IMG/VR virus record: IMGVR_UViG_3300044941_000276
Coordinates: 1-64,000 of that record
DNA: 64,000 nucleotides
DNA from: a virus
Reading direction: 5' to 3' (one strand)
How positions within the stretch are numbered: position 1 is the stretch's first letter; each line of letters begins with the position of its first letter. Below the pieces are notes generated by a model. That model made no database searches. It was not told the origin of the DNA and saw only the letters and a list, made by a program, of their open reading frames with translations. Shown in pieces: positions 1-25,126 of this stretch. Position numbers and translations under genes: made by a program.

Positions 1-3000
1 TTTTCCATCAAGGTAAACACTTGATTGATCTGTTACTACACCTCCTTCTATATCAATTACTCCATCGTGTATCATTTGAGCTATAAACATTATCTCCCTA
101 AATTTTTGGTCACCTATGGCATTAAACCACATCATATTACTTGATGCCCAAGCCATACCTGTTATTTGTTGTCGTCTTGCATATAACATAGACTCTACGT
201 TCATATTATCCATGTTATATTTAAGTCTAAGTTGTAATAAAAACTCTTCGTTATCTGGATTAAAAACAAACCTCATAGCTTTCATTACACCTCTTCTAGT
301 TACTCTATCGCTTCCTATACCTCCGTTTAATATTGGAAGCGTAGAAAACATAGTACTCAATAATTGAATAAAAGATGTACGAGCAGATAGACCCAATTGT
401 TGAAGAGTTACAGCTGATTTAAACGCGCTAATGTTACGAGCTAACATTTCTTCTTCTTCTTTAAGACCCGCTTTTCCAAATACATTGGTTCTAATAAATG
501 TATCCATCAAATCGGTTATTTCTGGGAAGTTTTTATGCCATACAAAATTACTCATCGATATCATACTACGAGCAGCCATGATTTGAGGAAGAGATTTATT
601 CCACTCTCTGGTTTTATTTTCTTGATAATTAGCCCATAGATATAAACTTTCTATATCGGTTTCCCATTGATCTTGTTGTGTTTCATCTAACATTTTTTGT
701 CTATTCTTAGGGTCTTTTTGATACATCATAGAACTTTTAATCTTAGCTTTGAACACATTGTTATCGTCAATGGATCTTTCGTTTTCATTTTGTGCAGCAA
801 TAGTCTCATTAAAACTATTTTTAAAAGACAAAAGAGCTTCTTTAAAATTTCCTTTTTTAACAGATTCTGCAAACTTTGCACTTGCTGATTTTTCAATTAA
901 AGGCAGTTCTCTTACAGTTACATCATCCAAGTTATCATCGGCTCTCATTTCTCTTAGATTTTCAATCATCTTAGAAACGAGGTTTCTTTCAGCGTTAGTT
1001 AGCTCGGTTTGATTAAATTTTTTATAATCATAATTTTGATCATAAGGATCGCGTAACCTAAAAGTATTTCTTATTTTTATAGTTCCATCGGGAGCTTCTA
1101 TTTCTTCATATTCATATAAATTATTAAAGTGATTTGATGTTGTAAGACTTGTTAATTTTCCCTTTTCTTTGTAATATTCTGCAAATTCTTCTCTTATTTT
1201 ATCAAAATATTTATTATAAGCCATTTTAAACCTTTGTCTCATATTAAGAACGATAGATCTAATACTTTGAAACATAGGAGATCTAACTTCATCAGGAGGA
1301 GTAATGCTTTTAGAAAGTCTTGACATGTCACCTTCATCTGCGTATAATTCAATGTTACCAACAGTAAGAATAAGTTCATTTAACAATTTTAATTCATACA
1401 AGTCTTCTTCGGTCACTCTACCTTCCATTCGTTGACGTTCAAGTTCTTGTTGTCTTTGTACTATATCGTTATAAAAATTATTATCTATTGAGTTGTTTAT
1501 ATTTAATGTTCCTACTGATTGACCAGGTTTTGCTTTTAAATTGTTTAGTAATTTATATTGAAATGCTGCTCTAGGGGCACCTATATTACTTACACCAATG
1601 AATCTCGATTGATAAAATGAATATATATCGATTATTCTATCTCTTACACTTTGTCTATTAGCATAACTATTATATGATTTTATAGCATCATCCATATCGG
1701 TAGTTTCTCCTGAAACCTCGATAAGTTTTTTAACATCTCTATCAATTTTAGTTATATTCATTATAGTGGGTTTAGAAGTTACTTGATTAGATATCGATAC
1801 AATCGACCCTATTTTACGATCACTGTTAAACTTTTGATTTATTATAAATAGATATGTTTTAATAGCTTCTATATTTCCATAACGAGCGTCCATAAGATTG
1901 TACATATTATCTTGCTCGGCATTTAAAAAGTTACCAGCTATACTACCCGATGATACTTTTTCTCCAAATATAGGCATGGAACTAAACGATGTGTTGTTTA
2001 ATATATCGCGGTCTTCATTGGGTTTAGGATGAAGATTTAAAAAGTCTATAACGTTGGTTTCTGTGTTTAACATCATTACAATACCCAATTCTAATGATTC
2101 TGGTGTAGATACATCGGTCCACAATGGCACATAAGTTACATGTTTAGTTGTAGGATCATATTCTGCTTTAAACTCTGACCAATACTTACTAAAAGCTGAA
2201 TTAAATACCTTTCTATATTCACTATCATCATAATCACCTGTAAAGTCAAAACTAGGTTCCGGCATAGGTTTGTTATTATAAGTGTATTGACTATTTAATT
2301 GATCAGGTCTAAATCTATTTTGCAAACTATAAATTTGCATCATGTTAAAATAATTAGATAATAACAGACCATAATCTTGTTTTTGAGAATAAGTGTATTC
2401 AAGATAATCATCTAATAATTTTTCATAATCGTTTACATCTTGGCTGCGTATTACTTTACGTTCGATAGCGTTAAAGAAATATCCTTTAGCCATAGCTTTT
2501 TCTTTTTTCTTTGCTTTTTGCTTAGCTATATCATCAGGATCATCCGTTAGCGATTCATAATTAAAGTATTTTTTCATGAAGTTTCTGATAGGTTTATTTT
2601 TTATAGAAACTTCACCTTTATTTAACAATGGAGTACCGTATCTTGAATTTAACTGATGTTGCATATTACGGTAAGTTCCAAGCGTTTTAATATTTCTTGG
2701 AGCTACATCAACTCCACTTTTATTATCGAGTTGTAGATTTTTAAAACTAGTGATAACTCCTTTATCAACATTAGTATGATTAACTGTAAGTTGTATAGGA
2801 ATAGGAGTGATAGTAGATACATTGATACCATTTTCCGCTAACATGTGAGCATATGTAGCCATTTGAGCTTGTACGGCTTTATCTTTACTTTTACTCCAAA
2901 ATTCTCTAGGTTTAAGCGATGTTTTATAGTCTATAATGTGAGCGTCCCCTTTACTATCTATTACAAGTAAATCTATGGTACCAGCCACATTACCTAGTCC

Positions 3001-4278
3001 AGTATCACCTACTCCAGTAATTTTAAGTTCTGGATAGACATGTACAGCATCTTTTGGTATAACAGGTAATATCCGTGTTAAAAAAGTATCGGCTATTAAC
3101 GATTTAAAACTTTCAAGATCATCAATATCTTTAAATTTTTTAGTACCGTCATCTTGTACAGGTAATTCATCAAGAGATGTGAGTGCTTCAAATATTTCTT
3201 CTTTAGTAATATTTCGATTAAAGCTATTACCCATAGAAGTTATTATTACTTCAAATCCTTTATGTACAGCTGTACCTACCAACGATATATTCTTTTTCCA
3301 TTGGAGATCAGCTTTTACATATTGTTTTAATTGATTTTGCATTCTTTTGGTTATAGCTATACTATCACCTATTATATCTTTACTTTTTACATTAAAATCA
3401 GTGATTTTTATTTTACTAACTGTTTTCTTAACACTATCGGATATATCGGGATCTTTTTTTACTTCTTCAACCCACTTGTTATAATCGGCTATAAACTTAG
3501 GTGTCTTTGATCTAACTTCTAAACTATTATTAAACTTATATTTGCCATTTTCAAAATAGAAAAGATCAGGTACTATTTTTGTTAATTTATTATAAGACTC
3601 GGCATCGATATATTCCTCTTCGTTATATTCTTGTGATGTTTCAAGAAACATATCTTTTATAAAATTACTAACCCTTTCATAAGTCTTACCATCTTTAACA
3701 TATACCGATGATTCCTCGGTACCTTTTAATTTCATTTTTTGATTACTTGTTATTATATCGTTTATCTTTTTAACTACGTTAGAAAGATTATCGATACTTC
3801 TTCTTCTAAAACTGTCTATTCCCTTTTTACGTTTTGCTTGAAAACTTTCATCGAGGTATACAGCAAGATCATTTATAGTAGTAAACTTTGATAAATCTTG
3901 TTCTATACCTAACCATTGTTTTATAACATCCATCAATCTTAAAAACCATGATTTAGGGGGACGATCTTTCTTTACTTCTTCGTGAACGCCCCTAGTAAGA
4001 ACTTCTGCGATTAATTCTTTTCCAGAAAGATAAGGATAATTTAATTGAACGTATGATAAAACTTGTTTACCTTCGGTAGTCATGATATAACTATTATATA
4101 TCTTCTTTATAGATTTTTCATCCTTATCATATATTTCATCTATAAATGGGTGTATTGCTTCGTGAAGTAATATATTATTATCAAGCTGTCCTACAAAATC
4201 AAGATTGTTATTGATATAATCAATGACTTGATCCAGCGTATAAGTAGTATTGTTAAGTATGTAATAGCAGTTCTTCAT
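1..4278 (-). CDS. Giant virion cargo protein (partial, runs off the window) with N-terminal HExxH zincin-like domain and PD-(D/E)xK nuclease domain
   Basis: Absent from the ORF track, consistent with no stop in the window. Hand translation from ATG 4278: MKNCYYILNN...LLHEAIHPFI...AEVLTR; ~2820-3050 reads VYPELKITG...AGTIDLLVIDSKGDAHIIDYKTS...QAQMATYAHML (RecB-like PD-(D/E)xK with QxxxY). The same frame reads ...YLDGK at position 1. Only segments were translated. Confidence 0.8.
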   Translation of the reverse strand, partial: MKNCYYILNNTTYTLDQVIDYINNNLDFVGQLDNNILLHEAIHPFIDEIYDKDEKSIKKIYNSYIMTTEGKQVLSYVQLNYPYLSGKELIAEVLTRGVHEEVKKDRPPKSWFLRLMDVIKQWLGIEQDLSKFTTINDLAVYLDESFQAKRKKGIDSFRRRSIDNLSNVVKKINDIITSNQKMKLKGTEESSVYVKDGKTYERVSNFIKDMFLETSQEYNEEEYIDAESYNKLTKIVPDLFYFENGKYKFNNSLEVRSKTPKFIADYNKWVEEVKKDPDISDSVKKTVSKIKITDFNVKSKDIIGDSIAITKRMQNQLKQYVKADLQWKKNISLVGTAVHKGFEVIITSMGNSFNRNITKEEIFEALTSLDELPVQDDGTKKFKDIDDLESFKSLIADTFLTRILPVIPKDAVHVYPELKITGVGDTGLGNVAGTIDLLVIDSKGDAHIIDYKTSLKPREFWSKSKDKAVQAQMATYAHMLAENGINVSTITPIPIQLTVNHTNVDKGVITSFKNLQLDNKSGVDVAPRNIKTLGTYRNMQHQLNSRYGTPLLNKGEVSIKNKPIRNFMKKYFNYESLTDDPDDIAKQKAKKKEKAMAKGYFFNAIERKVIRSQDVNDYEKLLDDYLEYTYSQKQDYGLLLSNYFNMMQIYSLQNRFRPDQLNSQYTYNNKPMPEPSFDFTGDYDDSEYRKVFNSAFSKYWSEFKAEYDPTTKHVTYVPLWTDVSTPESLELGIVMMLNTETNVIDFLNLHPKPNEDRDILNNTSFSSMPIFGEKVSSGSIAGNFLNAEQDNMYNLMDARYGNIEAIKTYLFIINQKFNSDRKIGSIVSISNQVTSKPTIMNITKIDRDVKKLIEVSGETTDMDDAIKSYNSYANRQSVRDRIIDIYSFYQSRFIGVSNIGAPRAAFQYKLLNNLKAKPGQSVGTLNINNSIDNNFYNDIVQRQQELERQRMEGRVTEEDLYELKLLNELILTVGNIELYADEGDMSRLSKSITPPDEVRSPMFQSIRSIVLNMRQRFKMAYNKYFDKIREEFAEYYKEKGKLTSLTTSNHFNNLYEYEEIEAPDGTIKIRNTFRLRDPYDQNYDYKKFNQTELTNAERNLVSKMIENLREMRADDNLDDVTVRELPLIEKSASAKFAESVKKGNFKEALLSFKNSFNETIAAQNENERSIDDNNVFKAKIKSSMMYQKDPKNRQKMLDETQQDQWETDIESLYLWANYQENKTREWNKSLPQIMAARSMISMSNFVWHKNFPEITDLMDTFIRTNVFGKAGLKEEEEMLARNISAFKSAVTLQQLGLSARTSFIQLLSTMFSTLPILNGGIGSDRVTRRGVMKAMRFVFNPDNEEFLLQLRLKYNMDNMNVESMLYARRQQITGMAWASSNMMWFNAIGDQKFREIMFIAQMIHDGVIDIEGGVVTDQSSVYLDGK

Positions 4279-4280
4279 TA

Positions 4281-4496
4281 TTAGTTATAGTTTAAATATC
4301 CTATTATTTTAACTTTATCTTGTTCGTAAAAATAAATGGCTCCAAAATTATTGAGATAACTTGAAACAAGAGGTCGATGTTCTTTCTTAACTTTGAAACT
4401 AAATCGCGTATTGTAATATAGATATAAAGATGCTTGAGCCAAATCATATCCAAATTGGATGTCACTATTATCGGTTTTTAACTTTTTCATTAACAT
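4281..4496 (-). CDS. Small hypothetical protein (71 aa)
   Basis: Fills the gap between flanking - strand genes, overlapping the upstream stop; no recognisable motif. Confidence 0.55.
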   Translation of the reverse strand: MLMKKLKTDNSDIQFGYDLAQASLYLYYNTRFSFKVKKEHRPLVSSYLNNFGAIYFYEQDKVKIIGYLNYN

Positions 4497-5236
4497 ATTG
4501 TTTTAATATTAAATCGTTTAAGTATAGACTCCCATTCTTTATCGCTAGGTCGATAATTTATTTTATCTCCATCATACCAAGCCTGAGTTGAATCTTCAAG
4601 TTTTCTAGCCCACGATACTATATCAGGCCTAGTTGATAATATAACATCTTGATCATAAAATCCAAATTGATTAATTATTTCTTCTTGATTGCGTGATAAT
4701 ACATCTTGGTCACTCATAGGTAATGATGATACAATCGCTATACTTGTACCTACTCTTGAAAGTATATTGTTTAATTTACTTTGTGTAGCTTTACCTTTGT
4801 CAGACTCGATATAGTATATACTATCTATAGTAGGTTCTAAATTATCATCTACCATTGTTTCATCTATACCATTACTTCTAACAGCTTGTATCCAAGTTTT
4901 TTCTCCTGATAACCACTCGGCCTGTGCTTTTCTCCAATCTCCAAAGTGTTTTATAAAATCATGACTGTGTACCATTTCATAATCTCTCATGGGATCATCA
5001 GATCTGTTATAGAGAGCTTCCCATAATCGACTTTGATTATTATTAGCAGCTTTTACAAACGGTCTGTTATTCCTATAAACTATTTGACCGTTCTTTATTA
5101 ATTGTTTCTCGAAATCAGATCTATTGGCTATATTAGCGGCTAAGTTGTCCGACTCTAATTCTAATATATTGTTTACATATGAGTCTTCAACTACATCATG
5201 ACCCATAACATTTAATAAACATATTTGATTACTCAT
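4490..5236 (-). CDS. Cargo-associated protein (~248 aa) with a polyvalent-protein-like FxxxFGDW...D.N.EP module
   Basis: ORF 4490..5386, probable start ATG 5236 (MSNQICLL); the extension is antisense to the + gene. Motif KAANNNQSRLW...HSHDFIKHFGDW...VDDNLEP resembles modules of phage large polyvalent proteins (recalled). Confidence 0.7.
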   Translation of the reverse strand: MSNQICLLNVMGHDVVEDSYVNNILELESDNLAANIANRSDFEKQLIKNGQIVYRNNRPFVKAANNNQSRLWEALYNRSDDPMRDYEMVHSHDFIKHFGDWRKAQAEWLSGEKTWIQAVRSNGIDETMVDDNLEPTIDSIYYIESDKGKATQSKLNNILSRVGTSIAIVSSLPMSDQDVLSRNQEEIINQFGFYDQDVILSTRPDIVSWARKLEDSTQAWYDGDKINYRPSDKEWESILKRFNIKTIC

Positions 5237-8200
5237 GGCTTTATGTATTAATTTAACTGATATCAATAATAATGGTAACGTTCGTTTAAAATTTGCAGAC
5301 GACGTAAGTGTTCGTGATATGATAGATATACTATCTAAGTTTGATAAAGATCTAACAAAAATTATAACCCAACGCAAATATAGCAATATCCAATCACTTA
5401 CTACTATAATAGATACTAATTTAAAACTGTTAGATCAGAATCAAAGAGATAGAGTATTTTTTGAAGTTATGACCGATGATGGTTTTTATATATCGGATCA
5501 GCGATATGATACTAACGTTGAAGAAATAAAAGAAGAAGTTAAAAATGAAAAAGCTGAAGATGTTTTAAAAGAAGTAATTGATGCAAAAGCTCAACAAAAT
5601 ACAACCGATATAGACGACGAAGAAATAAGATATTACGAGCAAGTTGTTGAATCGACAGAAGAATCTAGTCTTGTAATAAGTAATTATATCAACGGTGAAG
5701 TCGATCCAATAATAGAAGGAGTTATCAATCAATATATAGACGAAACACAATCATATGTAGATGAAGAAGATAATAGATCATCAATTCGAGAAAACATAAT
5801 AAATAGACTTAAATCGTTTAAAGTTAAAATATTATCTGAAAAAGAAGCTGCTGAAAACGGCATATTATCTAGTGAAGAAAATAAAAACAAAAAAATAAAA
5901 GGATATGTATCGTATGAGGATAATACAATATACATAACTCCTAATACAACCGAAGATGAAATATCAGAAGTAATATTACACGAACTTACTCACACAGTAT
6001 TAAGATTAAAAGATAATGTAGGAGACGAATCTTTCTTACAAGGCGCTGAACAAATAAAACAACTATTATCTTCTAAAGAAGATGAAATACTTAGTAGTAA
6101 TAATCAGTCGCTGATAACTATATATAATAGAATAAAAAATAGCGAAGGTGATGATTTAATAAACAATGTTGAAGAGTTGGCTGTACGAGCTTTAACAAAT
6201 AAAGCTTTTGCTGATAGTTTAAACAATATACAACTTGATAAATCCAATGTTACATATGGCACATTATGGAGTAAAATAATTGATATAATAAGATCAGTTC
6301 TTAATATTGGAAGTAAACAAAACACATTAAGATCAGCGATACTTAGTCCAGTTGTTGAGTATATTGATAAAAGAGAATCTATAGAAACTCAATTTGAAAA
6401 TGACATATCATATCAATTGTATGAAGAAACTCTTACAATGAGTGATTATGTCAACGGTAGAATAGTATGGGAAAATTATACAAAAGATGTAACCGTAAAT
6501 TACAAGAAAGACAATAAAGAACAATCGTTTAAAACATTTGATCGTTATTATCTTGAACGTATAGATAGACACGTACCAAAAAACAAAAAAGAACTTACTC
6601 GATATGACCAATATCAATTATCTCGTTGGGATTATGCTATAAGCAATCTTGAACAAGGAGATCTTGTATTGGTTCCTAAAATGAAAAAGGTTGGCGATCA
6701 ATGGCATTATGAATATAAAGATGCCGATGGTAATTGGAGGAGTCATAATGTAAATCAAGGTATAAGACCTAACCTTGAATACAAAACTATGTATCTTCCA
6801 GTATTATATCCAACTACTCCTTATTATAATACAATTGCTGTAGCTACACCTAATAGTGAAGAAGGTGGTCGAGTTTCAAAAGTAGATAAGTCTACTATTA
6901 TATCAATAAGAAAACGAGATAGTAGCAATATAAAAAAATTAGATAAAATAACTCGATCTGGAAATGAAATTACTGATGAATTTAGAGCCCATGCCGATAC
7001 AGTATTTGAAGAACTAGGAGAATTTAGAGATAGTAGAAGTAGATTTTATAAAAAAGACGAAAAAGGTCGATATGTAAAATCTTGGATTGATAAAGATGGA
7101 AATCCTGATAATGATAAATTAAAACAATTATTACAAGAACATCAATGGGTAGCTTTATTTTCTCCTGATAGAAATTTTCAAATAAAAGATTTTCAAGAAG
7201 GAGACATTGTAAAAATAAGCTTTAAAAAGTGGGATTCGGTTAATAAGAGATGGGTTGCAAGAGATGATAGAGAAATAAACGCTAGAGTTAATTTCACTGT
7301 TGGAGGTAAAATAAGCGTAAGTTATATAGCCAGTGATTCTGATGATCCATTGAGTGTAAGTAGTTTTCTTATAGATCCAGAAGATGTAATAGAATTAAAC
7401 AAGAAGAAAAGTAATATATCAATTGATTCTCTTAATAATATTAAATTAGGCACTAAACTAAAAGAAGATCCCAACTGGTCAATTAGATCTGTAAAAGGAT
7501 CGACATTGATGACAGAAGAAGAATATATCAATTATAGAAAAGAAAAAGATAGTAGATTAACTGAAGACAAATTAAGAGAAGATTATAAAAAATATTTAGA
7601 CAAAGAAGAACAAAGAAAAGAAGCAGGTCAAGAATACGTAGGGAATCTTAATCCTGGAGACGCAGTACTTTTACCTTGGAGAGGTGAAAAATCAAACGGT
7701 GAAATAGTTGAAGGATTTAAATGGAGAAAGGTATTATTTGCTTCTACCAATGGGGTATTTGTAGAAGAAATTAATAAAGAAGGCGATCCTTATCCGAAAT
7801 ACTATCCGACTAGTAGTGTAAAACACGTAGGTATATATGTAGGCGACGATAAAAAGATATACCTAGAACACGAAAGAAAATTTCCTAAAATAGAGGATAG
7901 TGACAGCGATAGTGTAAAAATATCTAAGTATAAATTAAAAAACGATAGCTTTTTATCTATACCTATATACATACCAAAGCTTACTGAAGATAATGAAATT
8001 GAAGTAAGAATCGCCAGAGAAGAATCAATGAGGTATATTAAACTTCTAGAACCTGGAGATCTTATAACTGAAAATGTAGATATCGATGGTAAAACAGTAA
8101 CTCTCGAAAAAGTAGTTATATCAGTAGATGGAGGTATTGTAAAAACAGCTTATAAAACAAAAACTGGTGATATTATAATAACAAGAGTAACAATAGATAA

Positions 8201-10310: not shown

Positions 10311-10313
10311 AAA

Positions 10314-10337
10314 GAGACCCTCAAGATTGAGGGTCTC
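10314..10337. terminator. Bidirectional intrinsic terminator between convergent giant genes
   Basis: Perfect inverted repeat GAGACCCTCAA-GA-TTGAGGGTCTC with A-rich left and T-rich right flanks, between stops at 10310 (+) and 10344 (-). Confidence 0.85.
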
Positions 10338-10343: not shown

Positions 10344-13300
10344 TTAACATTCTTGAGTTAATATCTCCATATTTATTAAACCTAAGAAAACAGCTTTTCT
10401 ATTTTTTTGCGATTCTAATATTCGTTCTAGTTCTATTTTTTTAGCTTCTTGTTTTTTATAATCTTCTGCTTTTTTGTTTAAAGATACCATCTTATTTCTA
10501 GCTGTTTTCTTTTCACTATTTGATAGAAGAGGTTCTATACTACTAGATATTTCAATTGTACTTTTTTCTAGTTCGTTGTTTGTGCTATCTTCTTTAATTC
10601 TACTTATAGTAACAACAGCTTTATCTTGATTTACTTTTACTTTTACTTCAGGTTTTTCTTTAGTTCGGTAATCGTCTTCTGGAAAATAAAAATCATCAAA
10701 ATCTTGATCGTAAGATCTATTGTATTCAAATGAACCAAATCCAAATCTTGTAGCGTAAGCTATAATTGTATTTTGTACGTCTACACTTTTCATTTCTTCA
10801 TTTAAAGCAGAACCATAATTGGCTTCATAAGTCCAATAATCAGTCATAATCTCAGGGATATATTCGAAATATTTTGTAAAACTACCTTTTTTAAGAGTAT
10901 CCCCAAACAATATAAGATTATAAAGACGCAAAGCTTCTTGAGTTTCCCTATCTAAATCTTTTATACCAGCTTTCATTGATAATTCTTCAATAACATCTCT
11001 TTGTGACATACCTGTAGGATTAGGATCAAAACTTACTTGAGCTACCCCAGATAAACTCATACCCACTCTATCTCTTTTTGTAGTATCAACTGTTACTTTA
11101 CTTAAAAATCCTGGCGCTACTCCTTTTTGTTTCAAGTCCATCAAATGTTCACTTACATCTTCTATAAAAGATTTTCTACCGTAAAAAACAACTTTGTTAT
11201 TCTTGTCTTTATCGTCGTCTAATACATCGAGTCTATATTTTTTTCCGTTAAATTCTATTTTTTTACCGTTCAAATATTTATCGATTATATATCGATTAAT
11301 CCCGTTATACAAAGCTACAAATTGCTCTTCTTTAATTCTGCCAGTAAATATTTTAGCTTCACGTAAAGCCTCGATTAATTTTATAGTCATATCTAATTTT
11401 TTACCTATAACTCTTTGTGCTTTTAATGAGTTAACTGCTATACTTAATTGAGCAATTGTATCGGGTTTATTATTTAACACACTTAAAATATTAACGCCTC
11501 GTTTTACTTTTTCGTATTCTTCTACAGCTTTGGATCTGTAATCACTATCTAAAATAAATTTCTCAAAGCTAAAAGGTTTATCGTCTACTAATAAACCTTC
11601 TTCGCTTATTTTACTCATAAATACATCAATGTTGTATATCCTTGTATATACCCCATATGATGTAGGCTTTAACCCTTGATTTATACCTAATATTTGACCT
11701 AATGTTGTTAATTCTTCTCCTATTAATAACATATTTTGATAAAAAGGTAGCAATGTTCTGTACATATCTACGCTTTTTTTCGCATCATCGTCAAGTTGTT
11801 CATATTTTAATCCAAGTCGATTAAGATATATCTCTTCTCCTTTTTCTAATTGATCACCCAAGCTTACATAATCACCCTTTTCTTTAAATATTGATCCAGA
11901 ATAATCGTCAATAGCTGCTTTGAATACATTATTTGTGAGTAATTCACTCATTTGTTCAATATTCATACCCATCATAATCATGGCGTTTGCGATACCTGTA
12001 GTAGTAAGATTTAGGTTAAGACTTGATAGATATAGATACTTAGCGTTATCAGTAGCAGCGTTAAGTAATTGACCTAGTTCGTCTGCAACTTGAGGTTGTA
12101 TATTTCTAATATCTTTTAATTTATTTTTAAACCCTTCTTTATCTTTTTTTATTTCTTTTACAATATCTTCATATTTTGGATTAGTGTTATACTGAAGAGC
12201 TTCAACTATTGTATCGATATCGTTAGCAGGTAAGTTAGGTAAAAATATACTCATAGTTATATCTTTGTTACTGAGTAAACTTTGAACTTTATTTCCTTCA
12301 ACAGTATCTTCTATCGATATAAGAACATATTCAATTAATTTACCAGCTTCTTTTACTTTACCTTCAGTTAACAATTGTCTTATAGTATTGATTGTTTGTA
12401 CAAACGAAGAAGTTATTGCGCTAAACGACTTGATCGATACAGCTTCTGGACCAATGTTTACTTTGCCATCAACGTTAGCATATCGAGCTTCCATTCTTGC
12501 TACGCTACTGTCTTCATTTAAAGATCTGGAAGTGCTTCTTTTTTTTGCGTTATCGGCAGCGGTTTTAACGTCGCCCATATCAACCCCCGATTCTCTTTGA
12601 ACATAGTTTTTATGATTCATAGCTGCTTCTTTTATTGCATCAAATAAACCATTAACTATAGCTTTTTTGTTAAATTCTTTACTATCTTTTGAAGATAATT
12701 CTTCAAGGGTAGGGGATTGGTAAACAATGCCCTCATTATCTACAAAATAAGTCATCAATGTAGTCTTATCCACGTCATAGTCACCACCAGTTAATATTTG
12801 ATGTTCGTGATTAATCATAGCTGTATTTTCAGCAGTATCAATAAATCCTACTATTTTATTACCCATAACCGAAGCTAAAGACTGAAGTGGAATACGTGTA
12901 GTAACTGTTTCTGTAGCCTTTTTAAACGAATTGTATAAATCAATAGCGTATTGTTCTTTGCTATAATACTCGCTATAATCCCCATTGTAATTTTCATCAA
13001 CTTGACTTTCTCCTATTTTCTTAGCTCTTCTTTTATATGCGGCATTTATTTTTTTACCTCTATCACTTTTATCATTTAAAAGGTTAATGTAATATTCTAC
13101 ACTTATATCATTATAATCAGTTTGATCTTCCAAGAAAAATCTACTTTTCCATATTTTAGGAGCTAATATTTCACCTGGGTAATTTATTATAAAATTATCT
13201 TTTGATAACTCATTTAAAGTGTCGTTTAGTTTATTTAGTAAAACAGCTCTCTCTTGAGAGGTTAAATCTTCATTTTGTAATCGGATAACTTCTTCCAATC

Positions 13301-15989: not shown

Positions 15990-16000
15990 ATATATAATAT

Positions 16001-19000
16001 TTATTTTGAACAGTTATTTAAATCATTCCACATAGTAGCAATGCGATTGTATATATTTGATAATATAACATTGGTGTTAGAAAATATACCACTACTATTG
16101 CCATCTACTGTAGAAAAAGTAGTTTTTGTTTTTAACGATTGTTCGCTTTCCATTTTAATAGAAGCTAATTCATTTAAAGCTTGAGATCTAATTTCTGGAT
16201 CATTTCCACCATTAATAATGTTGTTTACAAAATTTATAATCTTTTGTGGATTAATAAATAAATTATTTACTTCTTTTTCTTCGAGCACTTTAAATAATGA
16301 GTTCACTAATTTTAAAATTGCTTCATTTTCCGCTTTATCTGATTTCAATACAATAACATTTCTCTTGGTTATTTTATTATAAGCAATGTAATAATATTCT
16401 TCGATGTACTCTCGGATATCATTTATCATTGAACCTATATCTAAACTTTCAATTTTTTCTGTGTAACGAGAAACAATAGTATTTTTTATTCTATCGCTTT
16501 CTTTTGTGGCTTGACCGTTGATAACCATATCGGGTTTTACTTGTTTGAGTTTAAACATATTTATAAAAGCAGATCTTAGATCATACAGAGCTTTGATTTG
16601 ACCCGATGTTAAATTTTTATTGTTAATCATATTATTTATACTATATCGTTTACTAGACGATGTTGATGTAAACGCAGATGTAGAGATATTAATAGGATCG
16701 GTGGAATTTTCAACACCAAGTATCATGTTAAGTGTAGCTAGAGTGTTTAAAGCTCTATAACTAAATTTGTTAGGATTTGCTTTTGCAGTTTCCATACCTT
16801 TAACTAATACATCATTGATATCTTCGCTATCATATTTTATATTAAGAGCGTTTAATGTATCGATTACCTCTTCCCATCCATATAATAATTCACCTTTATT
16901 TACAAAAACATTGCTTACTGTTTGTACATTATCAAAATCAATTACAACATTTCCTTTATCATCTTTTGTTACTGTAGGCGATACCTTTTCGTAACGATTT
17001 AAGAAAGCTGTTAAGAATTGACTTCCTCCTTCTAATCCGTCCACTTCCCCTGATTCTTGCATATAACTATGCTCTTTTACTATATTTGTCATAGAGTAAA
17101 CAATCTTTTGATTTTTATCGGTTGTTACTTTTATTACTCTATTTAAATCAGCAAAAACATTTCCTTTTATAAGATGATGTCCTACATTGTAGGCTAAGAA
17201 TACAGCTATTTGTTTCTTAGCGTTGTGATTAATTTTTCCAGGGTCAATGTCTAGTAATAACTTTAACATTAAAACAACATCGTTATTTAAGTCACCTGTA
17301 CTCTTAAAACCCATCTCGGTAAATAATTGTAACGTGTCTTTGTTAACCTGTTCTCTTGTAGCTTTTATTTTATTATTTAATTGTTTTACTTTATCGTGAG
17401 TAAGTCCCATCTCTCCCGTTCTTGGATTATATAAAAATATATCTCCAAACATTCCATTTAACATCTCATCGTATACAAGAACTTCAATATCAGTATTATT
17501 ACCAAATATCATTTTTCTTAAATCTGCTGGTGGTATTTTTGATGTTTCTATACCAACATCATCTCCAAAACTATTAACCCATAAACCCAATTGATTTTCT
17601 AAAGCTTCATTTATTTCTTGACCAGTGTTAGTAAACACATAAGTATTAGGCACTGGTGTGTTTTTATCAGTAGGATAAGTAACGTTAAGTATATACGGTT
17701 TAGCGGGCGGGGTAATCTCATCAATCTCTGTATCTAATTCAATCGTAGGAATACTTTTAACATCAGTGCTGATTACAGCATCGGTGCTAGTAGGTCTACT
17801 AGAACTTTCTGGTGTAACAACTGTACTACTTGTTATTGAAGAACTTGAAGTACCAGGTGTACTAGTAGTAGTATCAGGAGTAGGAGTTGTTGATGTAGAT
17901 TTAGAAGGAGTAGGAGCGATCCCAATAAACTTACTTATCTTACTTTTTGGTATAGCTATAGTAGGGAATATTTCTTTATTGTTTTCATAATCAAGATCAG
18001 CATCTGGAGAAGCAGCGGCTGAATAATTATCTTTATCTAACTTGTTCCATATAATACCTGTTCTATAATTAATACTACCGATAGTGACACCTAACATAGA
18101 TAAAGCGTTTTCTATTTCTTTTATAGAAGATGCTTCATCACTAGCATTATTAAGATTATCTGTGTTAATTGCATCTATTAATTGATAAAGTAAAAAAGAA
18201 CTATTTACTCTACCTCGATCGTTATTAAATTTATAAGTCCCCAGTGAAGTTATTAAAGTACTATCTTGTGTATAATCCAAATTTTTACCCATATCCATTG
18301 CTATTCTTGTACTTCTATCATCACTATTTTGCAATATTATAGGTACATCGGTATTATTTATTTTTCTAGATTTGATATATGGTACTTTTTTACCATCTTT
18401 TTTATCACCTTCTACAGGATAATGTTCGGTAATGTAGTATTTTCCTGATGGGTCTTTATCTACACTAAATCCAAAAAGAGCTTCTGTTATAGATATAGAA
18501 TCACCAACCTTATATTTTTCTACTACTTTACCAGAACTGTCTTTTGTATATACAGGTTCTCCTAAAGTTATTCTAGTACTTGCATCTTTACTTATTAATT
18601 TTGCTAATAAAGGATCGGTATAATTTCCAGCTTCCAATTGTTTTACTACATGTTCATATATAGATAATCCTATCCTTCTAAGATCTGAAATATCCATAGC
18701 TGCTTCAAAAAAAGCGTCTATTTCAACATTAGGATCTTTTTTTATAATTTGTTTAATCAAATCATATTTTTGTTTTACTCTGTATAGATATCTAGATAGA
18801 GAGTCTTTTTTAGCTTTTCTAAAAATGATACTCATTCTTTTATTAGCGTACTCATTTTTAAATTTGTCTATTCTAGACAAAATATTACTTAACATGTATT
18901 GTTTTAAAATATTTTTTGTTGAGGTTGCGTCTTCAGGGGATGAGTTTTTAAATTCAATGTCTGTAGTAACAAATGAAATAGCTCTACCTAATAATTTTCT

Positions 19001-22000
19001 ATATCTATTAAATTCTGAGCGTATGATATTTTTAATGTTTTCATCAGGTATATCATCGATTGTATATATAGGAATATAACCAAATGCTTTTTTTAATTCA
19101 CTTAATAAAAGTGTTTCTATAGTATTACCATCTTCATCAAGAACAGTATTTATAGGATCAACAGTTAATATGAATGTAGGTGTAATATATACACCTTGTT
19201 CTTCATGAATTTTTAAATAATCTTCTTGATTTAAAGGTGACGATAAACGATTTCTTTTAAAAGGCATAACTGTAGGCTCAACACCTTCACCATTTGTAAA
19301 TAACAATCCTATTTCGTTTATTTCTTCTTTTGTAAGAGGTGTGGGTTTTATAAGACTTTCTAATTTATTTTTTAAAGCTGTTTTTTCAGCATCTGTGAGC
19401 GAACTTATTCCATCAATCCCAGGGAATCTAAATAAAGTAGTATCGCCATATTTTATTTTGTAGAATAATTTATCTTCATAGTTTTCTTTAACTATTCTTA
19501 TAGAATTTCCTATGTTTTTACCATTTAATGTGACATCATATAAACTTGTACCGTTAATTAATTGATTAAATACATCAATAGCGTCTTTAAAAGATGGTTG
19601 TTTGCTTTCTCCAAAATAAAAGAAAACGTTTTGTTTAGCAAAATCATCTCCGTCATCGGAATAATCATCTTCATCTAATTTATCATCTATTCGTTTTAAT
19701 CCAGCATAAGTTCCTGCCGGAACTGATAAAGCTTCTTCTTCTGGGGACAGCTCTTCTTTTGATGTTGACGAAGTAGTAGATGAAGAAGTTCCTGATTTTT
19801 CAGGTGTAGGTACACCTGTTCCTATTGGTGATCCAGAAACTGGTACCGACCCTTTTATTGTTCCACTTGATGTTCTAGATGTAGCGGCCAGACTTATGTT
19901 TTTCATAGATTCGGCTTTTTCAGGAGTCATTACAAGCTGATCCACTACCTTTTCAACATCATTGAATTTTACCTCTATACCATAATAGTTATTATTTTTT
20001 GATACAGGTAACAACATAGCTCTCTTATAACGAGAAAGAAGTGTATTTAAAGTTTGAATCTTTTCAAAAGGATTCATACCCATACCTGTATCATCAGGTA
20101 ATTTTCTTATGATAACATAGTCAAATTCTCTGCCTTGTATCTCTTTAAAAGAAAGAACATTGGGATCGGTTGATTTACCAATTACATCATCAATAATTAC
20201 ATAAGAAGCTCCCTCGGCGTTTGCTTTTGCTATTATCTCATCTTCTAACTCTTTGCTATAAACAGTAACACCTTTTGTATCTTTTTTGCTATAATTAAAA
20301 AACAAAGGATTGTTTTTAGCATTAACTTCATAAACGTTATCGATTTCGCTTATATTAGCATCGTGAACCGTATTAGATAATCTCGCTAAAGTCATAGCAT
20401 TACTATCGTAATTTTCAGTTCTATTTCTAAAACTCATAGTAATGCGAGGAGATCTCTCTATTCCAGGTAAATAACTTAAAGTTGGAGTCTTAACAGGAGC
20501 GCTTGTGCCGTTTTCTAGATTTATTGTAGCCCCAAGTTGGTTAGTATCACCAAACATGAATACAAATTGATCCGAGTCGTGTAATAATTGTATATCTGAC
20601 TTTGTAAGATGAGTTGCTTCGTCTAAAATCAGATATTTATTTACAGGTTTATCTGTTTTTTTGAGATCATAGTCGGGTACAATAACGTCGCTTTTGCTTG
20701 TAAAAGCACTTTTTTCAACCATTCTTGGCGTAGATTTGTTATCTACTTGACCAGTTATTTTGACCAATGAAGGGTTTTTTATTTTCTTTTTGATTTTACT
20801 TTCAACACTACCTGGTTCACTAGTTGATTTAAAAACTCCATATAATACATTATCTACAATTTCTTGTTTTGGACTAGATATGGTATAATCGGCAGTTACA
20901 GATTCTAATAATCGAGCCAAATAATTTATTAATACTTCGGTTTTTCCTATACCTGGGTTGGAATTAATAAATATACCTCGATTAAATCCAGGTGTTTCTA
21001 TTTCTGGAATGGTATTGTCAACGGCAGTAACTTTACTTCCTCTTGACTTAACGCTCTTGATTTTTAATTTTTCGTGATATTGATAAGCGCTAAACGCTTG
21101 AAACAATACCATCTCTTGTTCAAAAGTAGGTACTTTTCCATTTGGATCTTTTGTTATTTCTTTTTTTATAGCGTGTATTTTTTCAAAGAATGCGTCAATA
21201 TCGCCTCTCATCATTGACACTAACATCATGTCGGCTAAATCTTCAGGATTATCCATTGATCTCTCAGACCCAACATCGATCATTGATTTTTTAGATGCTT
21301 TTAAAGCATTTTTTAATTTATCCGCTTCTTCACCACCCTTCTTATATATTTCGTGAAGTTTTTTATTTAGTTTAATTAATTCCTGATATGATTTAAAAGC
21401 AAGCTGTTCAAGATTAGATTTTGCAGCTATTGTTTTTTCATCGCTGTTTAATATTTCAATTAACTCGTCATCATAAGAATATCCCGATATACCTACTTTC
21501 GCTACTATATTTTTTACAACTTGTAGCGCTCCGTATATATAACGAGCTTCTATACTTTTAGTTTGAACTTTACCGTTTAATCTGGCTAATTTAAGTAAAT
21601 CGCTTGCTTGTTTTAATTGAGCCCTATACATGTTATCTATAACATTGGCTTCATCTTTGCTTATATCGGGCGTTTCGGTTTCTCGTTTTTTTCCAGAAAA
21701 ATAACTAGGTTCAAGAGATTTAAGTTTATTTATAATAGGTTTTATATAAGCAGGTATTTGAAGTATTGCTCTTTTTTGATTTATTTTATCAATCAGTTCT
21801 TCTAATTCATTTTCTATATCGTCTCCTTTAAAATCCGATTGCATTGTGTCAGCTTGCGATCTAAGCTTTTCAATAGTTGATTGAACTTCATTATCTACTA
21901 TTGATCTAGGAACAAACGACGAGTCAGGATTGTTACCTACTTTTTGAGCAATGGTGTTGTAAAGAGGTAGATTTTCTTTAACATCTAATAGATGTTCTTT

Positions 22001-25000
22001 TACTTTTTCTTCGCTATTTTCTATTATAAGATCTAATAATTCATCTAATGATTTTAAATTTTTAATTTTATTTTTTAATTCCAGATAATCATCATCTAAA
22101 TCTTCATCTTCTAAGAGATCTAGATGTTTTTTTAACTCTTCAAGTTTTTCTGATTTTGTTTTATCCGATCCTAACTCGATGTATAATTTATTTAAAGGAT
22201 CATCTTCAAAAAGATCTATAACGGGACTATTGATTGGTAATTTGCTAATATATTTTTCAAGAGTAAATTCTTTATCCTCTAAAATTTTACCATCTTTATC
22301 TTTTACATAATAATTATCGAAACCTATATCGTTTTTACCTGTATCGCTAGACACTTTATATCCAGGATATATATAAGGCAGAACGTCCGACGACGGTATG
22401 TAACCAGGCGTTGATATTATGGTATCGATTTCTTTTAATATTTCTTTTTTCCTTCCCTCGTCCGATTCTTTGTATTCATTAGCTAACCTAAATAATTTAT
22501 TATCAAGAGCCGCTTGTTTTATTTTAATTTTTTCATCACTTTCTTTATCACCTTGATTATATAAAGCTCTGAAATAAGGATCTCCCTCAGGAGATTTGCT
22601 AATCTTTGATTTTGCTTGTATAAAAGCTTCTCTCAATTCTTTTGGTCTTTGAGTAGTACGATATTTTTCCCAATCATCCAATGCTTTTTTAAGATCGGCG
22701 CCTTTTTTCATACTACCGTCTTCATTGGTTATAAAGTCAATTTTATTCTTAACGTTAAATCCTTGTTGAAGAACATAGTTTTTATTAAATAAAGCTTCTT
22801 CCAGATAATCTTCTATTATAGGATTGGCATCTTTACCAATAGAACGATAATATTCAAACTTTTCTTGAAGTTCTTTTTCTTTAGCTTCTAATTGTTTTAA
22901 AATTTCTTTATTTCTAGCATCGCTTCCAGCTGGGTCTCTTCCAGCAATGTCGTTAAGTACTTTTTCTTTTTCAAGTTGAACTTTTACTAGTTCTCTCGAT
23001 ACTGATCGAGCGTCATTAACAATACTGCTAAGAGATGCTGCTTGAAACAAATTAGCTCCTCCTGCTACTTTATTAAATCTTTGACTTATACCATCAAATT
23101 CATCTTTAGTTGCACCTATACCTTCGTAAGCCGTTTTCAGTTTTTTAATATCGGCTGCCATAGTATTGGCTATATAATCAGCTTGTGATATATCGGTAGG
23201 GTCATTGCTATTATATGATCGGTATACTCTTTTACCATCAATAGTATCATAATAAACCGCAGATAGATTATTTGATGCTATATTGGCTTTTCTAAGATTC
23301 TCTATTTGTTTTAAAGCAGTATCGGTGTATCCTGATTGAACTATATCGGATAAAGTTTGAAGTCGATCATTATTTTTACCATTTTGAATACGATCAACTA
23401 TACCAGTAGTACCGCCAGCAAGAGCTCCCGCTACAGCCGATACAGCCAATTCACTAAAGAAATCTTCTCCCCACGGATTAAGAGCTTTATACTTACTAGC
23501 ATCTTTTTCGTCAAGTAAATTAAACTTATTCATTACTTGAGCAGCTGTCTTAAAAACTTCACCAAATATAACTTCGGTTGGTTCTTCAAGACCTTCTCCT
23601 ACAACACCTTTTATAATTTCATTTCCGCTATAACCTTTACCTAAGAAATCACCTATCCCTTGAAGCTTCTTTTTAACAGTGTTCATAAAACTAGAAGCTA
23701 CTGCCGCTTTTTGAGGCTCTGACATATTATTGATAGCTTGAGGACTATATACTTTCTTAAAATCATCCATAGTCTCTTTAAGAATCTTTTTCACTTGACT
23801 CTTAGCTATCTTGTCATCAAATTTATCCAACATCCATGTTTCAAAAGGAGAAATTTTATAAAAGGCACCAAGTGTAATAGCAGCAATACCCATAAAGATA
23901 TCCTTTGTACCTTTATCAAAACCAGCTCTCTCAAATTGTTCTCCTACTTCTTGAGCAGATTGTGCTGTCATATATGCAGTTGCTGCATTTTTAGCAACAT
24001 TTAAAAATCTTTTAGCTGATTTGTCGCCAGCTTGTAACGCTTTTTGAAAGTTAGGGTCGGCTACCGATTTAATAAACAACGGAGCCTCCATAAGTAATCT
24101 TTGTCCTGCAATTTGAGTAGCTCCACTACCTATCATACTAAGTATACCTTCCATAGAGAAAGGATCGCGTTGAGCTTGTTCTGTTTGACTAGATATAGTC
24201 AACATTTTACCCCAATTAGTAATTGTGTTACCAATATCTTCTGCTTCTTTAGAAGGTTTATATTTATCAGGATCAAATGAGCCGTTAGCAAAAGCGTTAC
24301 TTAAAGCGCTTACTGATTTATAAGCTTCTCCAAAAAGACTCATGCCTGTTGTAGCTAACCAACCAGCAGCTAATAATCCTTTTGTTACAGGGTTAAATAA
24401 TGAAGCTACTTTTAATCCTTCTTTTATAAGAGATCTTCCAACATTTTGTTCTATTTGATCGCTATCCATGAAATCAAAATTGTTAAGCGCAGAATCTTCA
24501 TCTGTAATAGCATTATCAAAAGATAACATCAAGTGTTCTTTTCCAGAAGTATCCCTTGTACCTATAGTTTCATAATAATAGTTTCCGTATATATCGGTAA
24601 CTGGATTTTTATTTTCATCGTGAGCTAACCATAATCCGCCCTTTTTAGCACCAATAGAAAAAAAGTCCAATATTCCTCCAACACCATCACCATTATCGAT
24701 CATTTTACCGGTATCGTGATCTTTGTAATAGGTGTTTTTTTGAGCAACTTCGTGCATACTATATCGAGCCTTTTCTATATTATCGTAGCTTTTGGTATAT
24801 TCTCTTTTATTAGGTAAGAAGCTAACGCTCAAATTTGGAGCCGATACCAAACCTATAGTTCTAGAAATAGGATCATCGAGCGCATAACCAGCAGAAATAC
24901 TAGTAGGATTGGCAACTCTACCGTTTTCATATTCATTATACGCTTGTTCGACACTTTTGTACCACTTATTAAAATCTTCCTCAGGTACATTTTTAAATGT

Positions 25001-25126
25001 ATCGGTATTACGATATTCTTTTGCAGGTTTTAATTTAAAATTTTCGTAATTACCATAAGTACCAGTAAGTACGCCAAAATCATAATTTGATTGATGAAGC
25101 GCAGCGGCAAAATCTTTTTCTTCCAT
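16001..25126 (-). CDS. Giant virion cargo protein (3041 aa): hydrophobic N-terminal region, SF1 helicase-like domain, S/T/P-rich linkers
   Basis: SF1 motifs NSNPGIGKT, LILDEATH, MFGDTNQLG, SFRN, IQGREFDYVII, TLLSRYK (nt ~20020-20970); Ala/Gly-rich hydrophobic helices (LLAAGWLATTG, LAVSAVAGALAGG) and EGLEEPTE in the first 600 aa. Confidence 0.8.
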   Translation of the reverse strand: MEEKDFAAALHQSNYDFGVLTGTYGNYENFKLKPAKEYRNTDTFKNVPEEDFNKWYKSVEQAYNEYENGRVANPTSISAGYALDDPISRTIGLVSAPNLSVSFLPNKREYTKSYDNIEKARYSMHEVAQKNTYYKDHDTGKMIDNGDGVGGILDFFSIGAKKGGLWLAHDENKNPVTDIYGNYYYETIGTRDTSGKEHLMLSFDNAITDEDSALNNFDFMDSDQIEQNVGRSLIKEGLKVASLFNPVTKGLLAAGWLATTGMSLFGEAYKSVSALSNAFANGSFDPDKYKPSKEAEDIGNTITNWGKMLTISSQTEQAQRDPFSMEGILSMIGSGATQIAGQRLLMEAPLFIKSVADPNFQKALQAGDKSAKRFLNVAKNAATAYMTAQSAQEVGEQFERAGFDKGTKDIFMGIAAITLGAFYKISPFETWMLDKFDDKIAKSQVKKILKETMDDFKKVYSPQAINNMSEPQKAAVASSFMNTVKKKLQGIGDFLGKGYSGNEIIKGVVGEGLEEPTEVIFGEVFKTAAQVMNKFNLLDEKDASKYKALNPWGEDFFSELAVSAVAGALAGGTTGIVDRIQNGKNNDRLQTLSDIVQSGYTDTALKQIENLRKANIASNNLSAVYYDTIDGKRVYRSYNSNDPTDISQADYIANTMAADIKKLKTAYEGIGATKDEFDGISQRFNKVAGGANLFQAASLSSIVNDARSVSRELVKVQLEKEKVLNDIAGRDPAGSDARNKEILKQLEAKEKELQEKFEYYRSIGKDANPIIEDYLEEALFNKNYVLQQGFNVKNKIDFITNEDGSMKKGADLKKALDDWEKYRTTQRPKELREAFIQAKSKISKSPEGDPYFRALYNQGDKESDEKIKIKQAALDNKLFRLANEYKESDEGRKKEILKEIDTIISTPGYIPSSDVLPYIYPGYKVSSDTGKNDIGFDNYYVKDKDGKILEDKEFTLEKYISKLPINSPVIDLFEDDPLNKLYIELGSDKTKSEKLEELKKHLDLLEDEDLDDDYLELKNKIKNLKSLDELLDLIIENSEEKVKEHLLDVKENLPLYNTIAQKVGNNPDSSFVPRSIVDNEVQSTIEKLRSQADTMQSDFKGDDIENELEELIDKINQKRAILQIPAYIKPIINKLKSLEPSYFSGKKRETETPDISKDEANVIDNMYRAQLKQASDLLKLARLNGKVQTKSIEARYIYGALQVVKNIVAKVGISGYSYDDELIEILNSDEKTIAAKSNLEQLAFKSYQELIKLNKKLHEIYKKGGEEADKLKNALKASKKSMIDVGSERSMDNPEDLADMMLVSMMRGDIDAFFEKIHAIKKEITKDPNGKVPTFEQEMVLFQAFSAYQYHEKLKIKSVKSRGSKVTAVDNTIPEIETPGFNRGIFINSNPGIGKTEVLINYLARLLESVTADYTISSPKQEIVDNVLYGVFKSTSEPGSVESKIKKKIKNPSLVKITGQVDNKSTPRMVEKSAFTSKSDVIVPDYDLKKTDKPVNKYLILDEATHLTKSDIQLLHDSDQFVFMFGDTNQLGATINLENGTSAPVKTPTLSYLPGIERSPRITMSFRNRTENYDSNAMTLARLSNTVHDANISEIDNVYEVNAKNNPLFFNYSKKDTKGVTVYSKELEDEIIAKANAEGASYVIIDDVIGKSTDPNVLSFKEIQGREFDYVIIRKLPDDTGMGMNPFEKIQTLNTLLSRYKRAMLLPVSKNNNYYGIEVKFNDVEKVVDQLVMTPEKAESMKNISLAATSRTSSGTIKGSVPVSGSPIGTGVPTPEKSGTSSSTTSSTSKEELSPEEEALSVPAGTYAGLKRIDDKLDEDDYSDDGDDFAKQNVFFYFGESKQPSFKDAIDVFNQLINGTSLYDVTLNGKNIGNSIRIVKENYEDKLFYKIKYGDTTLFRFPGIDGISSLTDAEKTALKNKLESLIKPTPLTKEEINEIGLLFTNGEGVEPTVMPFKRNRLSSPLNQEDYLKIHEEQGVYITPTFILTVDPINTVLDEDGNTIETLLLSELKKAFGYIPIYTIDDIPDENIKNIIRSEFNRYRKLLGRAISFVTTDIEFKNSSPEDATSTKNILKQYMLSNILSRIDKFKNEYANKRMSIIFRKAKKDSLSRYLYRVKQKYDLIKQIIKKDPNVEIDAFFEAAMDISDLRRIGLSIYEHVVKQLEAGNYTDPLLAKLISKDASTRITLGEPVYTKDSSGKVVEKYKVGDSISITEALFGFSVDKDPSGKYYITEHYPVEGDKKDGKKVPYIKSRKINNTDVPIILQNSDDRSTRIAMDMGKNLDYTQDSTLITSLGTYKFNNDRGRVNSSFLLYQLIDAINTDNLNNASDEASSIKEIENALSMLGVTIGSINYRTGIIWNKLDKDNYSAAASPDADLDYENNKEIFPTIAIPKSKISKFIGIAPTPSKSTSTTPTPDTTTSTPGTSSSSITSSTVVTPESSSRPTSTDAVISTDVKSIPTIELDTEIDEITPPAKPYILNVTYPTDKNTPVPNTYVFTNTGQEINEALENQLGLWVNSFGDDVGIETSKIPPADLRKMIFGNNTDIEVLVYDEMLNGMFGDIFLYNPRTGEMGLTHDKVKQLNNKIKATREQVNKDTLQLFTEMGFKSTGDLNNDVVLMLKLLLDIDPGKINHNAKKQIAVFLAYNVGHHLIKGNVFADLNRVIKVTTDKNQKIVYSMTNIVKEHSYMQESGEVDGLEGGSQFLTAFLNRYEKVSPTVTKDDKGNVVIDFDNVQTVSNVFVNKGELLYGWEEVIDTLNALNIKYDSEDINDVLVKGMETAKANPNKFSYRALNTLATLNMILGVENSTDPINISTSAFTSTSSSKRYSINNMINNKNLTSGQIKALYDLRSAFINMFKLKQVKPDMVINGQATKESDRIKNTIVSRYTEKIESLDIGSMINDIREYIEEYYYIAYNKITKRNVIVLKSDKAENEAILKLVNSLFKVLEEKEVNNLFINPQKIINFVNNIINGGNDPEIRSQALNELASIKMESEQSLKTKTTFSTVDGNSSGIFSNTNVILSNIYNRIATMWNDLNNCSK

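Follow-up and report, generated by a model that had tools for sequence, protein, structure and literature searches.

Terminal-only cysteines suggest disulfide tethers between giant cargo proteins of a very divergent crAss-like phage

Introduction

A disulfide bond between two capsid-packed, ejected phage proteins has been seen by cryo-electron microscopy (cryo-EM) in the pre-ejectosome of cyanopodophage A4 (Anabaena phage A-4L), where Cys1715 of gp27 is bonded to Cys5 of gp26 and the C-terminal helix of gp27 is inserted into a cleft of gp26 (PNAS 2025, PMC12002296). Neither protein contains any other cysteine: Cys 1715 is the only one among the 1717 amino acids (aa) of gp27, and Cys 5 the only one among the 1114 aa of gp26. 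The A4 authors ascribe to the bond a locally stabilising role and do not present it as general (PMC12002296). The present work concerns five proteins encoded in a 64,000-nucleotide (nt) stretch of viral DNA (IMG/VR record IMGVR_UViG_3300044941_000276, positions 1 to 64,000; hereafter the window), whose cysteines all lie close to a protein end. As in A4, an upstream giant with a sole cysteine near its C-terminus is accompanied by a protein whose sole cysteine lies near residue 5, and the proteins are packed in the capsid and ejected, which has been seen in A4 and is inferred for the window. The two systems differ in that A4 has one junction, two proteins, an ordered pentameric pre-ejectosome and no polymerase, whereas the window has four junctions.

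Ejected proteins poor in cysteine are also known from the Schitoviridae. In this family, cysteine suppression is conserved across the ejection operon, including the virion RNA polymerase (RNAP), and has been explained by passage through the periplasm (PMC11445570). N4 and DEV resemble the window in having cysteine-suppressed ejected proteins and a virion-packed RNAP that is ejected with helpers, as is proposed for the window; the N4-type RNAP differs in being a single, unbroken chain of about 3,500 aa that lacks terminal cysteines and belongs to a different polymerase class (PMC11445570, PMC13434306). The window has no single-chain virion RNAP of this size; its block is split into five genes.

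The Crassvirales provide the closest comparison in gene content. Their RNAP block (phi14:2 g067-g066-g065; crAss001 gp47-gp50-gp49) comprises, like that of the window, a head giant, a two-barrel RNAP, putative in the window, and a further giant, and the crAss001 block is likewise split across both strands. The phi14:2 record marks g065-g067 as found by tandem mass spectrometry, and crAss001 gp47, gp49 and gp50 were found in virions by mass spectrometry, with many disulfides elsewhere in the virion (PMC10172136). Crassvirales and the window also have in common cysteine-free cargo proteins before the block, a muzzle protein, the RNAP motif R-x-P..G-x-D-[FY]-D-[VI]-D and, as described below, the placement of terminal cysteines. 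Unlike the three members and two junctions of the Crassvirales blocks, the window has five members and four junctions, together with kinase-like, zincin and PD-(D/E)XK domains.

Cysteine distribution in the five-protein block

The open reading frames (ORFs) that fill positions 1-25126 of the window encode 8,287 residues (3041 + 1881 + 1691 + 248 and a partial 1426 aa). Their translations contain eight cysteines, against about 87 expected from the 1.05% cysteine content of the remaining 82 ORFs in the genome contig of 105,641 bp (P ~1e-27). All eight lie no more than six residues from a protein end (P ~1e-16 given the counts), leaving the interiors of the five proteins with none, a frequency far under the proteome mean. 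Among the comparison ORFs, 4/82 have a cysteine within the first eight residues and 5/82 within the last eight. The terminal pattern is therefore real and highly non-random. A first-pass annotation of this DNA had reported seven of seven cysteines at the ends of about 6,860 residues; the terminal placement and the positions it gave hold in the translations, and the tally becomes eight of eight in 8,287.

The five proteins form a series with one head, three two-ended links and one tail. The head, a 3041-aa giant (16001..25126, minus strand), ends ..NNCSK, with Cys 3039 (codon 16010-16012) as its only cysteine, so that the first member lacks an N-terminal cysteine, as had been noticed before. 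The RNAP-like link of 1881 aa (10344..15989, minus strand) has Cys 3 (15981-15983) and, as its last residue, Cys 1881 (10347-10349). The 1691-aa link (5235..10310, plus strand) has Cys 4 (5244-5246) and Cys 1689 (10299-10301), ending ..VKCLK, and the smallest link, a two-ended coupler of 248 aa (4490..5236, minus strand), has Cys 6 (5219-5221) and a terminal Cys 248 (4493-4495). The tail giant, of which the window holds the first 1426 of 1716 aa (1..4278, minus strand; its C-terminal end lies off the contig), has Cys 4 only (4267-4269). Its full length of 1716 aa is given by a near-identical assembly (P0006), in which Cys 4 is again the only cysteine and the C-terminal end has none. The complete set thus amounts to 8,577 residues, and the earlier claim that four C-terminal cysteines are matched by four N-terminal ones stands with the full-length tail.

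Judged from sequence, the interiors of these proteins appear to exclude cysteine, a trait known from other ejected phage proteins, with one cysteine placed at each end created by a gene break. Freedom from cysteine is not by itself a marker of cargo, because several proteins of the structural module also lack it. These include a 1089-aa, tail-fibre-like protein (36966-40235) and the products of 32540-33307, 40319-40786, 42735-43721 and 43960-44427.

Terminal cysteines in homologues

Loss of the terminal cysteines in homologues had been named in the first-pass annotation as a finding that would count against the idea; instead, homologues at 20-61% identity keep them. Three homologues of the 1881-aa protein (P0002-P0004, 31-42% identity) have exactly two cysteines, one at position 3-8 and one as the last residue, and a distant RNAP-like relative (P0005, 3185 aa) keeps both terminal cysteines along with internal ones. 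Three homologues of the 248-aa coupler (P0011-P0013, 29-41% identity) likewise have exactly two, at position 4 and next to last. The tail homologues P0007 (61% identity; Cys 4 and 1245) and P0008 (20%; Cys 3) both lack a C-terminal cysteine.

A syntenic 44.5-kb contig from a Dojkabacteria metagenome-assembled genome (MAG; JANWZV010000004.1) carries three matching giants. Its head (2971 aa, 31% identity to the 3041-aa head) has Cys 2970 only, and its RNAP (2066 aa) has Cys 3 and a cysteine as the last residue. Its convergent giant, of at least 3252 aa, ends ..SKCL, and the next-to-last residue is its only cysteine. This giant is common with the 1691-aa protein only over the last 400 aa, at 46% identity, and is for that reason uninformative on chain order. 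A search with the 1691-aa protein itself returns only its near-identical copy, so the evidence of conservation for this link is that of its C-terminal cysteine. The Dojkabacteria giant (L004:2-9757, plus strand) also bears a series of enzyme domains, namely an SF1 helicase (AAA_30/UvrD_C_2), a poly(A)-polymerase/CCA-adding head, a nucleoside diphosphate kinase, an HD domain and an AAA_33 kinase; from its domain content it looks like an injected, cysteine-free toolbox for RNA repair and nucleotide metabolism.

A further locus (OGRD01000281.1, 2-12427) encodes two giant frames, of at least 1645 and at least 2494 aa, only when TGA is read as tryptophan; under table 11 it falls into six ORFs. The first frame ends ..VIKIC, and an RNAP-like frame begins MNFC.. 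nine nucleotides later, both with internal cysteines. Its reading frames indicate that it is probably a recoded crAss-like phage.

One cysteine pair per gene break in known crAss-like phages

The same placement is found in described crAss-like phages, whose blocks are broken into genes at different points. In crAss001, gp47 has only Cys 2339 of 2341, gp50 has Cys 5, 1334 and 2404 of 2412, and gp49 has Cys 5 only. In DAC15, gp61 has only Cys 2220 of 2222, gp63 has Cys 5, three internal cysteines and one as the last residue, and gp62 has Cys 4 and 619. In phi14:2, the only cysteine of g067 is its last residue, g066 has Cys 3 and 2179 of 2180, and g065 has Cys 3 only.

Where members are fused, the cysteines are absent together with the break. 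In crAss002 and LMMB, a fusion protein of 4,070-4,245 aa combines the counterparts of gp50 and gp49, leaving a single break, across which the head ends ..VCS or ..SCM and the fused protein begins MSC, in crAss002 from the internal Met 33. The annotated start of crAss002 gp33 (L010:11088-11190) puts its first cysteine at residue 35; the MSC.. start at Met 33 suggests that the deposited one probably lies 32 codons upstream of the true start. In Fpv1 it is the head and the RNAP that are fused; the resulting 4401-aa protein has Cys 4400 only, with none at the fusion point, and the next protein has Cys 3. In all six phages, exactly one pair of cysteines thus flanks each gene break and the outer ends are without any; this rule is constant while the positions of the breaks differ among lineages. 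The outer ends are free of cysteine at the N-terminus of 9/9 heads and the C-terminus of 8/8 tails examined.

Identity of the block

The DNA of this uncultured phage was obtained from metagenomes of hot springs or microbial mats. Its 105,641-bp genome has a long structural module on one strand, and a 1453-aa protein at 52955-57316 matches the Pfam muzzle family crAss_MUZ (E-value 2e-40), which is why the genome is regarded as crAss-like.

The 1881-aa protein carries the catalytic motif TRIPLQSLASVM..(28)..GGDYDVDK at aa 1031-1075 (nt 12765-12899). GGDYDVDK, preceded by TRIPLQS, is invariant in four homologues, and the spacing and residues of the motif match those of crAss001 gp50, DAC15 gp63, crAss002 gp33, LMMB, Fpv1 gp33 and phi14:2 g066. 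Local BLAST matches to known RNAPs are confined to this motif, with E-values of 0.004-0.017 that were obtained against tiny databases. Neither tblastn of INPHARED and IMG/VR nor a profile search of PDB sequences gave a match, and the AlphaFold2 (AF2) model of the polymerase core, with a predicted local distance difference test score (pLDDT) of 50, is too poor for a fold search. The protein is accordingly accepted as an RNAP at the level of the motif, not of a family match. More generally, BLAST, PHROG, Pfam and profile searches found no match joining the window proteins to the phi14:2 or crAss001 block.

Domains could be assigned to other members. In the 1691-aa protein, a zincin motif, HELTH (aa 249; nt 5979-5993), is followed by an AAA_33/polynucleotide-kinase-like domain spanning aa 1355-1487 (nt 9297-9695). 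The tail giant has HEAIH at aa 39 (nt 4150-4164), and its aa 333-487 (nt 2818-3282) form a nuclease domain of the PD-(D/E)XK type. The head has a Walker A motif, GIGKT, at aa 1392 (nt 20950-20964) and a DEATH motif at aa 1502 (nt 20620-20634). No Pfam match was found for the head in the window; weak matches to UvrD_C_2/viral helicases occur in its Dojkabacteria-MAG relative, and the motifs point to a possible SF1 helicase module.

The 248-aa coupler

In the AF2 model of the coupler (pLDDT 70), residues 1-34 form a disordered arm that bears Cys 6, residues 35-244 a folded alpha/beta core, and Cys 248 lies at the extreme tip of the protein; Foldseek against the PDB returned no match to this model at an E-value of 0.001 or less. 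The start MSNQIC is the first ATG, whereas an upstream TTG start would place the cysteine at residue 56. The first ATG is favoured because the three homologues begin M-x-x-C.

Co-folding of C- and N-terminal pairs had been proposed in the first-pass annotation as a check, and it has been carried out for one pair. A predict_complex run that paired the 248-aa protein with its downstream neighbour, the tail giant (residues 1-330), scored 0.38, against 0.01 for the best control, with at least 61% contact agreement among runs and a partner pLDDT of at least 66. The mark used was reached by 58/80 solved complexes and 2/110 mismatched pairs; among scores of 0.60 or less, only seven of the 80 solved complexes passed, along with both passing mismatches, all of these counts being approximate and obtained with our own alignments. 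The prediction thus lends weak support to a contact between coupler and tail giant.

Three-protein crAss blocks have no counterpart of the coupler. Residues 82-122 of its family nevertheless resemble residues 33-76 of phi14:2 gp66 (L013:265-6807; hhalign E-value 0.0014, probability 17%), and the motif [DE]Y..S..[DE]FI..FGDW is common to the family and the N-terminus of this RNAP; hhalign of the family against crAss001 gp50 and DAC15 gp63 found no match. On this resemblance, the coupler might have been split off from the N-terminus of the polymerase. If the likeness is real, the coupler would precede the RNAP in the chain and would not follow the 1691-aa protein, a weak lead against the chain order proposed below.

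A proposed disulfide thread and its alternatives

The arrangement can be accounted for by a tether. The five proteins would constitute the virion-packed, injected RNAP block of a very divergent crAss-like phage, divided into five polypeptides where two or three are usual. By analogy with A4, each C-terminal cysteine would form a disulfide with the N-terminal cysteine of another member in the oxidised virion, so that the head of 3041 aa, the links of 1881, 1691 and 248 aa and the tail of 1716 aa would be joined as a linear thread of 8,577 residues. The thread could pass out of the tail as one chain, in the way of the unbroken N4 polymerase of 3,500 aa, and would fall apart when reduced by cytoplasmic thiols. 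Heterotypic pairing is favoured because only ends made by a break carry cysteines, because fused proteins are without them, and because A4 shows such a link. Taken together, heterotypic disulfides that make one thread and are released by reduction in the cytoplasm seem to us the probable explanation, held with some reserve. The best guess for the order of the chain is 3041>1881>1691>248>1716. The first-pass annotation had proposed the head-to-tail thread, which on its conjecture would fix stoichiometry and ejection order, and had known of no demonstrated mechanism of this kind. A4 now provides one, and the conserved ends, the matching numbers and the behaviour of breaks and fusions fit the pairing; the disulfide itself is drawn from the analogy with A4, and heterotypic pairing, link order, threading and reductive release are steps that we infer only.

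A bolder version of the same idea holds that end-to-end disulfides rebuild a single-chain injection thread in crAss-like phages generally. It would be carried furthest here, with four junctions, a dedicated coupler with a flexible arm and a payload of polymerase, helicase-like, kinase, zincin and nuclease modules, and reduction would serve as both release and activation switch. This we regard as possible, at somewhat less than even chances.

Several points weigh against the tether or limit it. Neither a disulfide nor any other contact has so far been observed among crAss-like cargo proteins, and crAss001 gp47, gp49 and gp50 show no clear density in the 2023 structural atlas (PMC10172136). Packing and ejection of the block are read from synteny, the muzzle match, the catalytic motif and the relatives; the 1881-aa protein has no family match in Pfam, PHROG or the PDB, and hhalign of this protein against crAss001 gp50 and gp49 gave none. 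Equal numbers of N- and C-terminal cysteines do not prove heterotypic pairing, because each split yields one end of each kind. Six linear orders are compatible with the cysteine counts, and gene order cannot settle the matter because the 1691-aa gene lies on the other strand. The positions of the N-terminal cysteines depend on the choice of start codon. Finally, BLASTP of the window proteins against A4 gp26 and gp27 gave a best E-value of 0.91. No sequence similarity is detectable, and the proposed likeness to A4 is one of mechanism, not of family.

Other roles for the terminal cysteines have to be set against the disulfide thread. The terminal thiolates might instead bind a metal, such as the zinc of a neighbouring zincin, and thereby hold partners together or keep a protease latent, in the manner of the cysteine switch known from the pro-forms of matrix metalloproteinases. 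An HExxH motif does lie within about 35-250 residues of a junction cysteine in eight proteins: in the window, the 1691-aa protein (aa 249) and the tail giant (aa 39, 35 residues from Cys 4), and elsewhere phi14:2 g065 (aa 245), crAss001 gp47 (2157/2341), crAss002 gp32 (1814/2020), LMMB (1743/1957), Fpv1 gp33 (4179/4401) and P0005 (3017/3185). The motif is present on neither side, however, at crAss001 gp50>gp49, at all DAC15 junctions and at 3041>1881 in the window; a cysteine switch requires one cysteine and not a pair, two thiolates alone make a poor zinc site, and the sole solved case with this signature, A4, is a disulfide (PMC12002296). A metal clasp is thus unlikely. As a separate observation, the zincin domain may serve as a socket for the end of the partner (HExxH motifs including loci L007, L009, L010, L011 and L014).

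Equally improbable in our estimate are links between copies of the same protein (N-N and C-C) or to fixed parts of the virion, for instance the portal, the inside of the capsid wall or other cargo. The virion may hold each protein in several copies, the parity of ends is compatible with such links, and the crAss001 virion has many inter-subunit disulfides, including a homotypic 47-47 bond in gp57 (PMC10172136); but links of this sort leave unexplained why the cysteines stand only at ends made by breaks, never at the outer ends of nine heads and eight tails, and why both are absent where members are fused, as in Fpv1 gp33, and the A4 link is heterotypic. A chemistry of the ends that involves no tethering, whether a redox activation switch, processing or ligation, or acylation for membrane targeting after ejection, is rated slightly lower still. 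It gains some credit from phi14:2, whose RNAP is thought to need activation, a step for which an adjacent zincin protease has been put forward (preprint 10.1101/2020.03.07.982082), yet the N-terminal cysteines lie at positions 3-8 whereas ligation needs position 1, no intein or Hint family was found, and a single role would have to suit both N- and C-terminal ends, and only at breaks. That the pattern has no function and simply arises from composition, gene calling or chance in proteins poor in cysteine can hardly be entertained: the genome is AT-rich and other window proteins are also free of cysteine, but the positions have P ~1e-16, and the pattern is kept at 20-46% identity and among lineages without detectable similarity.

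Other features of the locus

The 1691-aa gene, on the plus strand, is convergent with the RNAP gene and divergent from the 248-aa gene, which corrects the first reading of this locus. Between the convergent stop codons lies a G+C-rich hairpin, GAGACCCTC..GAGGGTCTC (10314..10337), with T or A runs on both sides, which is likely, from its sequence, to be a two-way terminator for the 1691-aa and 1881-aa genes; the hairpin is a sign that the convergence of the genes is genuine. The possibilities of an invertible segment and of a mis-assembly were considered and rejected, as flanking inverted repeats are absent. Three assemblies of the source sample agree in gene order over this region. Across the divergent starts, the window is collinear with two contigs of the same sample, one of 32.9 kb, which belongs to a strain about 1% divergent, and one of 4.8 kb, and convergent members occur also in crAss001 and in the Dojkabacteria-MAG relative. 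The start codons of the 1691-aa (plus) and 248-aa (minus) genes overlap in CATG at 5234-5237; with zero intergenic DNA, the promoter of each gene must sit within the other. BLASTP of the N-terminal end of the 1691-aa protein against that of phi14:2 g065 found no match.

Upstream of the head are three proteins of 642, 459 and 727 aa (25134..30814, minus strand), whose translations contain no cysteine, as had been stated in the earlier reading. They have syntenic, cysteine-free counterparts at 30-33% identity in the Dojkabacteria-MAG contig and probably correspond to the cargo proteins that lie ahead of the RNAP block in crAss-like phages. PHROGs and Pfam scans of the 3041-, 1881-, 248-, 642-, 459- and 727-aa proteins gave no matches, and no intein or Hint families appeared in the Pfam and PHROGs scans of the window proteins.

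The genome is not closed in the 105,641-bp contig, where the tail giant lacks its last 290 residues. Circular joining of the contig, which would give a false tail of 1434 aa, was rejected since the P0006 protein continues to 1716 aa. A 52-kb contig of run X1 extends 8.7 kb past window position 1.

Implications for crassviruses

How about one megadalton of protein is packed, ordered and injected through a narrow tail is an open question for crassviruses, and a 2026 paper on N4 states that how the three RNAP-associated proteins of crAss-like phages relate to the single chain of N4 "warrants further investigation". The cysteines of the cargo proteins are mentioned neither in that paper nor in the crAss001 atlas (PMC10172136) or the phi14:2 RNAP preprint (10.1101/2020.03.07.982082), and a full-text literature search found no mention of them. 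The type of link is already known from phage A4, and by analogy with it a tether is very plausible for crassviruses. What is new here is the number of junctions, four, in the longest chain so far, the two-ended 248-aa coupler, and the presence of the rule in a very divergent hot-spring lineage.

Terminal cysteine pairs can also serve annotation, since they mark true gene breaks and start codons, as with Met 33 of crAss002 gp33, and point to likely ejected cargo in phages that, like this one, are too divergent for homology search. If true, a covalent tether that is conserved would account for the single-chain behaviour of split polymerase blocks and would provide a built-in redox release.

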